IMG/VR virus record: IMGVR_UViG_3300042387_002331
Source: a virus
Strand: one strand, 5' to 3'
Length of the DNA stretch: 64,000 nucleotides
Shown here: one piece after another, positions 51,161 through 63,429 of the stretch
Numbering within the stretch: the first letter of the stretch is position 1
Layout: every line of letters starts with the position of its first letter
Made by a program: the position numbers and the translations under genes
The notes under the pieces: generated by a model
What the model saw: the letters and a program-made list of their open reading frames with translations, nothing else
What the model was told of the DNA's origin: nothing
Database searches by the model: none

Positions 51161-51916
51161 ATGATAAGTCTAGTTCAATTATTGAAGGAGGTACAAGGAA
51201 ATCCTAAAGCTATATTTTTAGCTGGCCCTGCAGGAAGTGGAAAATCTTATATATCCTCTAAACTTATCCCTAATACATTTACAGTTATCAATTCAGATGA
51301 CACTTACGAAGAGTTATTAAAAGCAAATGGGCTTGGTTTAAAACAAAAGAATTTTACTCCCGATCAATTATCTCAAGCATCTAAACTACAAGCTCAAGCT
51401 AGAAAAGTTACTCAAGATAAATTTGAAAAACTAATTGCAAATAAAGACCACGTTATTTTAGATGGTACTGGTGGTGCTTTAGCTCCTCTTACTAAGAAAA
51501 AACAACAACTAGAAGATTTAGGGTATGAAACGTTGATGTTAATGATCTATGTTTCTCCCTTAGTTTCACTTGAACGTAACCAACAACGTGACAGAAGCCT
51601 AATGCCTGGAATTGTATTACGTAATTGGAGAGATGTAAATAAAAATATTGGAACATATCAACAAGTGTTTGGTAATAATTTTATCTTATTAAACAACAAT
51701 CCAAAAGACGCTAAACAAGAATTTAACACTGATTTACTTGAACCGTTCCTTCAAGCATCTACTGCTATAGGTAAACCTAAAACTCCTGAAGAACAAGCAA
51801 AATCAGATGCTAAAAAAGCTCAATTGAACAAAGATATTGAATCTATGGTTAATCAATTACCTGAATTTGATACCCTAGATACAGCTAAAAATAAAATAGA
51901 TGAATTCGTTAGTTAA
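51161..51916 (+). CDS. zeta-toxin-like P-loop kinase with LLKE leader
   Basis: AGPAGSGKS, INSDD, ILDGTG, ERNQQRDR; leader MISLVQLLKE. Confidence 0.7.
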   Translation: MISLVQLLKEVQGNPKAIFLAGPAGSGKSYISSKLIPNTFTVINSDDTYEELLKANGLGLKQKNFTPDQLSQASKLQAQARKVTQDKFEKLIANKDHVILDGTGGALAPLTKKKQQLEDLGYETLMLMIYVSPLVSLERNQQRDRSLMPGIVLRNWRDVNKNIGTYQQVFGNNFILLNNNPKDAKQEFNTDLLEPFLQASTAIGKPKTPEEQAKSDAKKAQLNKDIESMVNQLPEFDTLDTAKNKIDEFVS

Positions 51917-53666
51917 AATACTTATACAGCCTATATTAGAGGCAGAAGGGCAAAAAGGTATTGCTCTTATTCCTGGTGGATTTAAACCACCTACAGTAGG
52001 TCACTTTGCATTGGTTGATGAAGTAGCTAAAAACCCTAACTTTGAAAAAGTAATCGTTTTAATTGGCCATAAAAACCGTGATGGTGTTTCTAAAGAGGAA
52101 AGTAAAGCAATATGGGATATTTACAAAAAATACTTACCATCTAACGTTGAAATTAAAATAGCAGAAAATTCATCCCCTATTTCGGATGTTGCCTCTATGA
52201 TTAAAAATACCCCAGATACATTTTTCTACCCAGTAGTAGGTATCCGAGGTGAAATGGATTTAGGTGATTTAAAACGTTTTGATAGTTTAAAAGGAAAATA
52301 CCCTAACTTTAAAACTATTGTTATCCGATCAGAAAGTAGTGATGATAGGGTTAGTGGTACAAATACACGTGCTGCTTTAATTGGTGGTGAAAAAGAAAGA
52401 TTTCAATCATATCTTCCAACTCAACTTTCACAAGAAGAAAAAGATAAAGTTTGGTCTATTTTAACAAAAACCCCTATTCAAGAATTTGTTACACAATCTG
52501 AATTAGATGATGTAGAAAAAATAGCTGATGAATGGTTTGAGGATTATGGAATAGATGTTCAATTCACTAAACATTTTATAGAACGAGTAAATGATGAACG
52601 CAATGGAAAACCTATTTCTGCTGAAGAATTGGAAGATCTATTTACCCAAACAGCAGAAAAATACGGAGAAAAATTAGCTAACCTCCCAGATGATTATCAA
52701 GCGGTATTACTTAAATTACGTAACGATATTAACTTACCATTTGCTCTAAACTATGATGAGAAAAATGATGAGATGGATTTAGTTGCTAAAACTGTAATGC
52801 GTAAGAAAAATTTTCAAACATCTAACCCGAAATTAGCTTTACAGGAAATGTATGTTGAACCGAGTGAACATGATTACCCTAAACTAATCAAATCACTTAC
52901 TGAATTTATGTTAAATAAAGGCATGAATATTCGTCCTTTACCTAAAGTAAAATTTGTAAATGATGATGTTGAAAATGCTAGAAATTTCTTCGGTAAAACA
53001 GCATACTATGACCCGAATAACCGCGTTATAGTACTTTACACAATGGATCGTCATCCAAAAGACATTATGCGTTCATATGCGCATGAAATGATTCACCATA
53101 TGCAGAATTGTGAGGATCGTTTAGGTAATATTACAACTCAAAACACAAACGAAGAAGGTGATTTACCTGAAATAGAAAGAGAAGCATATGAAAAAGGTAA
53201 TATGATGTTTAGAGGATGGACAGATACTATTACTGAAGGTGTTATTAAAGAAGAAGATGATACCGATGTACTTTCATACCCTAGCACATTTAAACCAGGT
53301 GTAAATATTTTAGTTATTTTCAAAGAAAATGAAAACTATCCAAATTTAAAACCATATTTTGACGAATATGGGTATGGTTTCTATTACCCAAAAGATAAAA
53401 CAATAATCATTGATGGTGAAACTTTTGTAGATTCAGACTTGGATTTTAATGATTTAAAATTTGTTGAAGCACACGAAGTAACACATTTACTTTTAGGACA
53501 TACAGGACCATATTCTGAAGATGATGAAATGGATGCTGATTTAGGGGCATATGTTTTATTAAAAGATAAAGGTTTACCTACTGACAAGTTAGTAAAAGAA
53601 TTTAAAAATAGACATGGGGTTGATTTTAGTGAAGAACTACTTGAACGTGTAAAAGACCTTTTGTAA
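51900..53666 (+). CDS. multidomain protein: cytidyltransferase-like NTase + BECR-like domain + two HExxH zinc-peptidase domains
   Basis: PGGFKPPTVGH and VSGT (HIGH-type NTase); FTKHFIERVND...AKTVMRK; AHEMIHH...EREAY; AHEVTH...EMDAD. Confidence 0.65.
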   Translation: MNSLVKILIQPILEAEGQKGIALIPGGFKPPTVGHFALVDEVAKNPNFEKVIVLIGHKNRDGVSKEESKAIWDIYKKYLPSNVEIKIAENSSPISDVASMIKNTPDTFFYPVVGIRGEMDLGDLKRFDSLKGKYPNFKTIVIRSESSDDRVSGTNTRAALIGGEKERFQSYLPTQLSQEEKDKVWSILTKTPIQEFVTQSELDDVEKIADEWFEDYGIDVQFTKHFIERVNDERNGKPISAEELEDLFTQTAEKYGEKLANLPDDYQAVLLKLRNDINLPFALNYDEKNDEMDLVAKTVMRKKNFQTSNPKLALQEMYVEPSEHDYPKLIKSLTEFMLNKGMNIRPLPKVKFVNDDVENARNFFGKTAYYDPNNRVIVLYTMDRHPKDIMRSYAHEMIHHMQNCEDRLGNITTQNTNEEGDLPEIEREAYEKGNMMFRGWTDTITEGVIKEEDDTDVLSYPSTFKPGVNILVIFKENENYPNLKPYFDEYGYGFYYPKDKTIIIDGETFVDSDLDFNDLKFVEAHEVTHLLLGHTGPYSEDDEMDADLGAYVLLKDKGLPTDKLVKEFKNRHGVDFSEELLERVKDLL

Positions 53667-53693
53667 ATTTATCAAAAACTCTAATTTTAAACA

Positions 53694-54218
53694 ATGCCAA
53701 ATTTATTAGATTTATACGAAGCAATTAAACCAAAATATATTATTTTTTGTGATATGGATGGTGTATTAGTTGACTTTGACAAAGGATATAAAGATTTAAC
53801 TGGAATTTCTACTAGCCATGCTAATACACAAGGTAGAGATGAATTTTGGGATCTATTTAAACGAAGTTTAGAAGAAAAAGGAATGTCCGAATACGAATAT
53901 TGGGCAAATTTAGATTGGCAACCCGGAGGAAAAGAACTTTGGAGCTATATCAAAAAATATAACCCATACATTCTAACAGCTCCTTCATTAAACCCAGAAT
54001 CCAGAGAAGCAAAAAACGATTGGGTTCAACGTTTAGACAATATGAAAAAAATCTACTTTAAACCTGCTAAATTTAAATCTGATTTTTCTGGAAAAAATCG
54101 TATACTTATAGACGATAGAAAAGACACTATCGACAGATGGAATGCAGCAGGAGGAATAGGAATTTTACATACATCAGCAGAGGATACTATCAAACAATTA
54201 CAAAATTTAGGTCTATAA
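53694..54218 (+). CDS. HAD-family 5'(3')-nucleotidase
   Basis: CDMDGVLVDF, ILTAP, K, LIDDR motifs. Confidence 0.85.
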   Translation: MPNLLDLYEAIKPKYIIFCDMDGVLVDFDKGYKDLTGISTSHANTQGRDEFWDLFKRSLEEKGMSEYEYWANLDWQPGGKELWSYIKKYNPYILTAPSLNPESREAKNDWVQRLDNMKKIYFKPAKFKSDFSGKNRILIDDRKDTIDRWNAAGGIGILHTSAEDTIKQLQNLGL

Positions 54219-54219
54219 C

Positions 54220-62594: not shown

Positions 62595-62628
62595 GTGGCC
62601 CAATCTTTGGATTGGGTCACTTTTTTTT
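62595..62628 (+). terminator. intrinsic terminator overlapping a promoter
   Basis: gtggcccaatc-tttg-gattgggtcac followed by T8. Confidence 0.8.
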
Positions 62629-62650
62629 GTATATTAAAGTAATAAAAGTT

Positions 62651-63121
62651 ATGAATATATTTTATATTAATGAAGATCCGATTATTGCTGCTAGGGAGTT
62701 AGCAGATGATCATATTAGAAAGATGCAAATTGAATGTGCTCAAATGTGTTGTGTTGCTCATTGGGTAAACGGTTCAACAGCACCATACAAACAATCACAT
62801 ACAAATCATCCTTCTACAAAATGGACACGAGAATCTATACAACATTATAGATGGCTTGTAGCACATGGTTTAGAAATTTGTAACGAATTTGAAAAACGAT
62901 ATGGTAAAAAACATAAAACTCAAGATGTACTCGAATGGCTTCGAGACAATGAACCAAATTTACCTGACAATGGATTTATGGATCCCCCTCAGTGTATGCC
63001 TGATGAATTTAAATTAGAAAATGCTATAGAAGCATATAAAAATTTTTACATTAATGATAAAGTAAAAATTAAAAAATTAGATTGGAAAAAATTAAACAAT
63101 AAACCAGAATGGGTTGTGTAA
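62651..63121 (+). CDS. pyrimidine-dimer DNA glycosylase (DenV-like family)
   Basis: MNIFYINEDP...DDHIRKMQIECAQM...HTNHPSTKW...PPQCMPDEF; ATG at 62651. Confidence 0.75.
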   Translation: MNIFYINEDPIIAARELADDHIRKMQIECAQMCCVAHWVNGSTAPYKQSHTNHPSTKWTRESIQHYRWLVAHGLEICNEFEKRYGKKHKTQDVLEWLRDNEPNLPDNGFMDPPQCMPDEFKLENAIEAYKNFYINDKVKIKKLDWKKLNNKPEWVV

Positions 63122-63147
63122 TATGTATAATGTGTAATTAATATAAA

Positions 63148-63429
63148 ATGAAAAAACAAATTATATCTGAAGAATTTAAACGCATGCAAAAGCTTGCAGG
63201 TTTAATTAATGAAGCATTTAATTCATTTTTAGATACTGAAGAAGGTGGATATATGAGAGAATACATTGATGATGTAGTTGAAGATAGCATGGGTGAACCT
63301 GAATCTTTAGATTTAAGATATCGTTCTGATTTTGATATAGCTTTTGATTTAGCATTAACTAAACTTAAAAAAGATCAACCACAGCTAGATTTTGATTCTA
63401 TTGAAGCAAATAAAGAATCATTCTTTTAA
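63148..63429 (+). CDS. hypothetical protein with RMQKLAGLINE leader
   Basis: MKKQIISEEFKRMQKLAGLINE; late motif at 63121. Confidence 0.6.
   Translation: MKKQIISEEFKRMQKLAGLINEAFNSFLDTEEGGYMREYIDDVVEDSMGEPESLDLRYRSDFDIAFDLALTKLKKDQPQLDFDSIEANKESFF

Follow-up and report, generated by a model that had tools for sequence, protein, structure and literature searches.

We analysed a 64,000-nucleotide stretch of viral DNA (IMG/VR record IMGVR_UViG_3300042387_002331; hereafter the window), and within it a cluster of genes at positions 51161-63429 whose otherwise unrelated products begin with similar short leaders ending in a glutamate. An initial annotation of this cluster had proposed that the leaders are portable tags that load enzymes into the phage head, comparable to the capsid-targeting sequence (CTS) of phage T4. 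The window corresponds to reverse-strand sequence of a complete virus record, which is 166,116 bp long, has direct terminal repeats and a GC content of about 31%, and carries almost every gene on a single strand; window and genome sequence differ by one base at position 63874. The virus is a freshwater, T4-like phage of 166 kb. Its major capsid protein (MCP) belongs to the T4 gp23 family (Gp23 match 7e-75) and is 57% identical to that of Flavobacterium phage immuto, which by this protein is among the closest cultured relatives together with Microcystis phage Mel-JY01 and Rhodothermus phage RM378. Identity to the MCPs of T-even-like phages is about 28%, so that the phage is related to T4 only distantly.

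Approximately 23 genes of the late region carry one of five recurrent leader families, and 12 of these genes lie within 51161-63429. All window genes described here are on the + strand and are referred to by their start positions. The MIKL family (MIKLxDILxE, 10 residues) heads four proteins encoded in the window and one encoded outside it. The four are a P-loop kinase of the Zeta_toxin/AAA_33 kind (51161-51916, leader 51161-51190; Pfam Zeta_toxin 4e-12), whose leader is counted from the ATG at 51161, the third codon of the longest open reading frame (start 51155); a small kinase-like protein (60266-60781, leader 60266-60295); an ADP-ribosyltransferase-fold (ART-fold) protein (60784-61302, leader 60784-60813); and a second small kinase-like protein (61358-61942, leader 61358-61387), which is a paralogue of 60266. 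A Gly-rich loop just after the leader and catalytic-loop-like motifs suggest that 60266 and 61358 are small protein-kinase-like enzymes, an assignment that we regard as putative; no family model matches either of them. The MxRL family (MxRLxKLIxE) is represented by the protein at 58680-59357, with a leader of 10 residues (58680-58709), and by a Cys-rich basic protein (59357-59830, leader 59357-59386). The MDNF family (MDNFDLKKyLxE, 12 residues) is common to an acidic protein (55420-56010, leader 55420-55455), a HiPIP-like Cys-rich protein (59832-60269, leader 59832-59867) and one product encoded outside the window, and the bodies behind it are unrelated. The MKKS family (MKKSDLKxLIrE, 12 residues) heads a small protein with a GTG start that is backed by DNA alignment (62199-62543, leader 62199-62234), a small protein at the head of the baseplate operon (36065-36412), in whose immuto orthologue the leader is retained, and three or four proteins encoded outside the window. 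Members of the fifth family, which we call the tail tag, have RMQKLAG(I/L/V)I followed by x-E in their N-terminal part; they comprise a small acidic protein (63148-63429), whose N-terminal tag region (63148-63213) includes RMQKLAGL and then I-N-E, and two products encoded outside the window. In a further small protein (33277-33615), conserved in immuto, residue 20 is the end of a leader-like site. The leader families recur in phage immuto, where the genes that carry them are in part different ones. Neither Pfam nor PHROGs names any of the small tagged proteins, and tblastn searches with the product of 57442 and the ART-fold protein against a GenBank phage set gave no match.

All five families fit a single pattern, h..hh.E, with hydrophobic residues at positions -6, -3 and -2 before the Glu. 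The exact 10-residue form is present in seven proteins, including the scaffold, and about eight carry the pattern shifted by two residues, a shift that corresponds to two of the families. The stricter L..hh.E ends within the first 20 residues 16 times, against 2.2 expected from later positions (7.2-fold). Pairs of 10-mers with a BLOSUM62 score of at least 30 number 38 among N-termini, 11 among internal segments and 5.5 between the two; 58680 and 59357 score 35 together, and 62199 scores 41 with a gene outside the window. A weight matrix trained solely on the leaders of homologues from other genomes gave 10 bits or more to 20 sites of this proteome, of which 14 start within the first 13 residues (37-fold enrichment), with scores of 26.6 bits for 60266, 16.5 for 58680 and 16.1 for 33277. 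Simpler patterns are less discriminating. Plain [ILVMF]xE is only about 1.5-fold enriched at positions 9-17, and the h..hh.E, family and matrix tests were used in place of that positional count; as a plain regular expression h..hh.E hardly separates early from late genes, whereas the family-level and matrix tests do separate them. Chance matches to the loose patterns occur in TerL, in a lipoprotein signal peptide and in a few early proteins.

The resemblance is confined to the leader. When residues 23 to the end are compared by BLASTP, just the two small kinases, 60266 and 61358, are connected. Recognizable domains begin right after the Glu: AAA_33 at residue 20 of 51161, the HAD profile at residue 13 of 53694, the first strand of the ART fold at residue 16 of 60784, and the Gly-rich loop directly behind the leader of the small kinases. 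The N-termini quoted in the initial annotation were found where it had placed them, as were catalytic domains beginning shortly behind the Glu, and its observation of similar leaders on unrelated proteins extends genome-wide and exceeds chance in the pair, pattern and matrix tests. At the DNA level, the sequences upstream of leader genes are unrelated, and a mobile DNA cassette around gene starts was rejected on this ground. Because the upstream DNA differs and synonymous codons vary, it is the peptide on which selection acts.

Homologues in other phages provide, as judged from their sequences, the strongest support for a portable tag. For the ART-fold protein we collected 227 homologues at E <= 0.001 and scored leader and junction in the best 120 of the 227. 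The body starts at the same motif in 120/120, and the junction residue is Glu in every case (120/120), with Leu or Ile at P3 in 117 and Ala, Gly or Ser after the Glu in 117. The leader ahead of this junction is 10 residues long in 72 of the 120, and its family varies: MIKL in approximately 81-87, the tail tag in 5, leaders resembling those of the T4 internal proteins (IPs; for example MKSFKEFITE) in about six, and MKKS-type or MDNF in others. Four ART-fold homologues are fused behind a protein of the 59357 type, an arrangement seen in P0072, P0100 and P0115. The MKSFKEFITE tag, which nearly copies the CTS of T4 itself, comes from a 238-kb T4-like contig (L026) with gp13, gp14, gp15, terminase and sheath genes. 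Five adjacent genes between its neck genes and gp15 begin with tags of this type, three of them encoding ART-fold paralogues, and the layout of the run is like that of the T4 ip locus. A 241-residue tagged protein of the same contig was considered as a relative of the small kinases and showed no detectable relationship to them. The structural region of L026 also contains a reverse-transcriptase (RVT_1) gene at 4679-5725, just upstream of a gp13-like neck gene.

The other families behave similarly. Among 1678 homologues of the HiPIP-like protein, several leader families are exchanged before one conserved body. This family, which has no Pfam model, is very large and highly conserved and includes members from Tara Oceans samples; the HiPIP-like label itself comes from few records. 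In an unrelated actinophage, Actinomycetia phage DSL-LC01, the gene for this domain is the neighbour of that for the capsid maturation protease. Close homologues of the P-loop kinase 51161 carry MIKL or MISL leaders, others carry T4-IP-like leaders and others none; the kinase domain also occurs deep inside giant metagenomic proteins of 1500-4000 residues (P0279, P0337, P0340 and others). For 61358, a MIKL leader is present in 28 of 32 scorable homologues. In four families the last 8-12 residues before the body contain h-x-E in 100, 87, 91 and 82% of sequences, compared with 7-23% of body windows. The same bodies thus stand behind different leader families in different phages, and some kinase homologues lack a leader altogether, as expected of the portable tag proposed initially.

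The protease that such a tag would need is encoded elsewhere in the genome, as the initial annotation had anticipated. A head module in T4 order adjoins the window on its downstream side, outside the window, and contains TerL, a gp20-type portal, two core-like proteins, an S77 protease, the scaffold and the gp23-type MCP. The prohead protease (Peptidase_S77, PF03420, 3e-27), whose gene neighbours those of the portal, scaffold and Gp23 MCP, shows 32% identity to T4 gp21, and the GEL(D/N)HP and SSRG(M/L)GS stretches around the catalytic His and Ser align. In immuto and in another contig (L021) a small tagged open reading frame lies between the protease and scaffold genes; none is present at this place in this genome. 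The scaffold is an acidic protein of 412 residues encoded just upstream of the MCP gene, and its N-terminus is a leader-like decapeptide, as is that of T4 gp22. The leader matrix also matches internal sites. Of 19 such sites of at least 8 bits, 6 belong to the scaffold and two head-core proteins, although these three account for 2.3% of the proteome (p = 3e-6). A motif for a protease site would behave in this way, which counts in favour of the capsid-targeting interpretation.

The scaffold also connects the leaders to the head in a second way, at its other end. Its C-terminus, RMQKLAGII, is the same peptide as the tail-tag leaders; the identity of a leader family with the scaffold tail is a point that had not been noticed before. 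The tail is conserved among scaffolds down to 42% identity, with Arg, Leu, Ala and Gly invariant, and an I-x-E site 15 residues from the scaffold end is likewise invariant (I395, E397). We scanned IMG/VR for MQKLAGII and obtained at least 123 matches. Among the matches listed, 94 lie within 2 residues of a stop codon, and 89 of these 94 are followed by a gp23-like gene; 23 lie within 25 residues of a start and six elsewhere, so that 117 of 123 are terminal. In this set the N-terminal copies are all directly followed by I-I-x-E, and the C-terminal copies have h-x-E within 16 residues upstream in 93 of 94 cases. Five of the six other copies have h-x-E on both sides (loci L043, L046, L059, L099 and L138), and the sixth is near-terminal, three residues before the stop. 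The internal copies suggest a polyprotein-like arrangement with the tag between two modules. Because the codons vary freely (60 distinct 24-mers among the 123 tags listed), conservation acts at the level of the peptide. Since the tail tag replaces MIKL before the same cargo, both would lead to the destination of the scaffold, presumably the prohead interior. A complex prediction for the MCP with the last 73 residues of the scaffold scored 0.00, which speaks neither for nor against binding. Two non-scaffold proteins encoded outside the window also end in the tail peptide: a 321-residue protein (genome positions 106317-107282, minus strand) ends in ..RRAGIIK and has a MIKL-like N-terminal leader, and is thus tagged at both ends, and a 77-residue protein (genome positions 102564-102797, minus strand) ends in ..IRAGIIK.

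We also examined the placement of the leader genes relative to a putative late promoter. Of the motif ATAT[GT]TATA there are 49 copies on the + strand but 4 on the - strand, and it is found 12-35 nt ahead of sheath, tube, baseplate, fibre and head-operon genes; because it is strand-biased and placed before structural and head genes, it behaves as a late promoter. In the cluster, one copy (ATATTTATA, 58668-58676, + strand) heads the gene run 58680-61942 and another (ATATGTATA) lies at 63121-63129 on the + strand. Further copies are located 29 nt upstream of 55420, 74 nt upstream of 62199, at 36051 ahead of 36065 and at 33255 ahead of 33277. A copy starts or lies no more than 45 nt ahead of 11 of the 23 leader genes, compared with 24 of 199 other genes (p = 1e-4), and several further leader genes sit later in the same motif-headed runs. 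None of the 65 genes in the early block of small genes carries a family leader (p = 4e-4). Both the association of several of these genes with the late motif and the pattern proposed as a test in the initial annotation, namely late enrichment with absence from early genes, are therefore found, with matrix hits also concentrating at N-termini. Motif and position together suggest that the leader genes are expressed late, alongside the head genes.

The ART-fold protein illustrates the arrangement of leader and body. An AlphaFold2 model of 60784 has a pLDDT of 86, and its leader (pLDDT 55) appears as a low-confidence appendage ahead of the first strand. Nearly all of the top 41 Foldseek matches belong to the ART superfamily (Tpt1, DarT and Scabin among them), with E-values of 1.5e-3 or weaker, and H19, Y18, Y83 and E99 are invariant in 56 family sequences. 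The protein itself falls below the cut-off of Pfam Tox-ART-HYD1, and a 35%-identical homologue (P0089) reaches 25.6 bits against a cut-off of 25. On the basis of the model and these matches, 60784 is predicted to adopt an ART fold of the Tpt1/DarT/Tox-ART-HYD1 kind, of the H-Y-E type. T4 Alt would then be a parallel in role and not in family, since Alt is of the R-S-E type.

Not every gene originally assigned to the set belongs there. The genes with recurrent leader families stand, whereas three others are doubtful. The protein at 51900-53666, with cytidylyltransferase-like and metalloprotease-like domains (PHROG cytidyltransferase match from residue 16; metallo-protease match at 469-554), has an N-terminus that falls in no recurrent family, and its immuto counterpart has no leader. 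The HAD 5'-3' deoxyribonucleotidase (53694-54218; PHROG 2643, 9e-27) has a short N-terminal extension, with residue 13 aligned to profile position 5, and is a weak candidate outside the recurrent families; its immuto orthologue also has an h-h-x-E extension. The N-terminus MKLHE at 56214 is not convincing as a leader. Two other genes of the cluster lack a leader: amid the tagged genes, 62651-63121 encodes a pyrimidine-dimer DNA glycosylase (DenV-like, PF03013; PHROG 624, 6e-50), and 54789-55418 encodes a 209-residue protein that has a membrane helix at its N-terminus and matches only a PHROG whose function is unknown. Outside the window, a PD-(D/E)XK nuclease (genome positions 101573-102508, minus strand; PF12705, 3e-24) has its domain from residue 28, behind a leader-like N-terminus, and is possibly a nuclease cargo.

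The leaders are readily compared with the CTS of T4, which is well established. In the T4 record, two ip genes begin with MKTYQEFIAE, gp24 with MAKINELLRE and Alt with MELITELFDE. The first 10 residues of IPIII suffice for packaging; targeting depends on residues 4 and 7 and processing on residues 8 and 10, and foreign proteins with the T4 tag are packaged and injected (PMC9026906, a review of Black's work). The same review considers that CTS-like tags may be a general loading route in T4-like phages (PMC9026906). The present leaders share with the CTS a length of about 10 residues, hydrophobic positions 4, 7 and 8, Glu at position 10 and placement on unrelated mature parts; the two systems also share a gp21-type S77 protease. 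The genes here are putatively late, as in T4, and one cargo, 60784, is predicted to have the ART fold that Alt has. The two systems differ in that at least five interchangeable leader families occur here instead of one, on about 20 candidate cargo genes instead of four or five, and in that the cargo here, known from sequence alone, is mostly enzyme-like (kinases, ART, Fe-S-like) and not composed of small basic proteins. In giant phages, a gp21-related protease cleaves a large number of head proteins behind a Glu, and the propeptides can hold several sites (PMC9026906). The head and ejection proteins of phiKZ, 201phi2-1 and SPN3US are similar to the present set in being processed after Glu, but their propeptides are long and differ from one another, whereas here short decapeptides are shared, and an interchange of tag families is not described there. 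In the literature on capsid targeting we found no such tags described beyond T-even and giant phages; for distant T4-like phages we found no publication on tag sets of this kind, nor one linking a leader to the scaffold tail. What we regard as new is the evidence that leaders are swapped, the connection to T4 through homologous cargo with a T4-like tag, and the use of the scaffold tail as a tag.

Shell-binding C-terminal tails are known from other scaffolds, such as the herpesvirus scaffold/protease tail that is released at the M-site and the C-terminal helix-turn-helix of P22 scaffold. The likeness lies in a conserved peptide at the very C-terminus, here with a protease-type site about 15 residues upstream; the difference is that here the same peptide doubles as an N-terminal tag and that MCP binding is hypothetical. 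To our knowledge, reuse of a scaffold-tail peptide as an N-terminal tag has not been described for the herpesvirus or P22 systems. Encapsulin cargo-loading peptides are short and terminal, and direct unrelated enzymes into an HK97-fold shell. They offer an analogy for a short peptide usable at either protein end, but they are not removed by a protease and do not resemble the present tags in sequence.

The sequences show portable tags with a conserved junction, a protease gene and a late-type gene context, and from these we infer docking, cleavage, packaging and injection: the leaders are probably T4-type capsid-targeting propeptides that load cargo into the head and are cut off by the gp21-like protease, and the freed proteins would be delivered with the DNA. 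Late in infection, the tagged proteins would be produced alongside the head proteins. The tag, through its hydrophobic residues at -6, -3 and -2 before the Glu, would dock the cargo on the scaffold core or on the inner shell of the prohead. Cleavage after the Glu by the S77 protease would free the mature enzyme within the head, and the enzyme would exit together with the DNA when the next cell is infected. At least five tag families would do the same job and be swapped among cargo genes, and the family copied in the scaffold tail would work at either protein end, always set off from the body by a protease-type site. Several points weigh against this proposal. Three genes at the start of the region (51161, 51900 and 53694) are more than 12 kb from any late motif. 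The residue after the Glu in the small kinases is Ile and not a small residue. Plain h..hh.E is found also on five early-region proteins and TerL, so that not each match is a tag. The cleavage specificity assumed for this S77 protease is carried over from T4 by analogy, and nucleotide-metabolism enzymes such as the P-loop kinase and HAD protein are unusual as capsid cargo.

A rather improbable alternative, though the best of those we weighed, is that the leaders are protease-cleaved propeptides of prohead assembly whose bearers are not delivered, being either core or accessory scaffold proteins or proteins kept inactive until maturation and then degraded or expelled, like T4 gp22, gp67 and gp68. 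The acidic, low-complexity character of 55420 and 63148, which recalls core proteins, fits this idea, as do the leader-like decapeptide at the start of the scaffold itself and the matrix matches at several internal sites in scaffold and core proteins. The folded enzymes (ART fold and kinases), however, carry one N-terminal site each and in this are like T4 Alt and the IPs, proteins that remain in the head and are then injected (PMC9026906), and the small kinases and ART-fold protein together hold one internal site of at least 8 bits (in 60266, 8.4 bits), which ends in Tyr and not Glu and is thus not a cut site. Further removed is the idea that the leaders have no link to the head and represent either generic amphipathic helices at N-termini or features of gene starts, such as translation-initiation signals or recombination linkers for gene shuffling. 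In its favour, the genome is AT-rich and encodes proteins rich in K, I, L and E, the plain pattern is only modestly enriched and found also on some early proteins and TerL, and the three tandem MIKL leaders are nearly identical in DNA. Yet upstream DNA is unrelated and synonymous sites vary, the junction Glu is invariant whatever the leader family, one family is the scaffold's own tail, and the recurrent families are absent from the early block; together these make this explanation a poor prospect. We give hardly any credence to the leaders being recognition sequences for a modifying enzyme, in the manner of leaders of ribosomally synthesized and post-translationally modified peptides. Instead, the tags follow the pattern of the T4 CTS and agree with the scaffold tail, the genome contains no SPASM domain, and its sole radical-SAM match is the QueE of a deazaguanine cluster; a radical-SAM leader system was rejected for want of a suitable enzyme in the genome.

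Returning to capsid-targeting propeptides, we offer a broader proposal more tentatively, and would put it at somewhat under even chances: that a large aquatic T4-like clade uses a modular, two-ended cargo-loading code, in which the scaffold tail and several unrelated decapeptides serve as interchangeable labels, each separated from its cargo by a protease site, and at least 10% of genes (kinases, ART, Fe-S and nuclease-like proteins) are loaded by mimicking the contact of the scaffold with the shell or core. The predicted cargo extends well beyond that of T4, with protein-kinase-like enzymes, a zeta-toxin-type P-loop kinase, an ART-fold enzyme and an Fe-S-like protein. That one leader family is also the scaffold tail provides a testable hypothesis for cargo recruitment, a step that is unclear even in T4. 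If the tags act in the way inferred here, short portable tags would become available for loading foreign proteins into the capsids of phages of non-model hosts, and for a very large group of uncultured T4-like phages from fresh and marine waters the set of injected proteins would be predictable from sequence alone. The tagged proteins would then be the first actors in host takeover and counter-defence.

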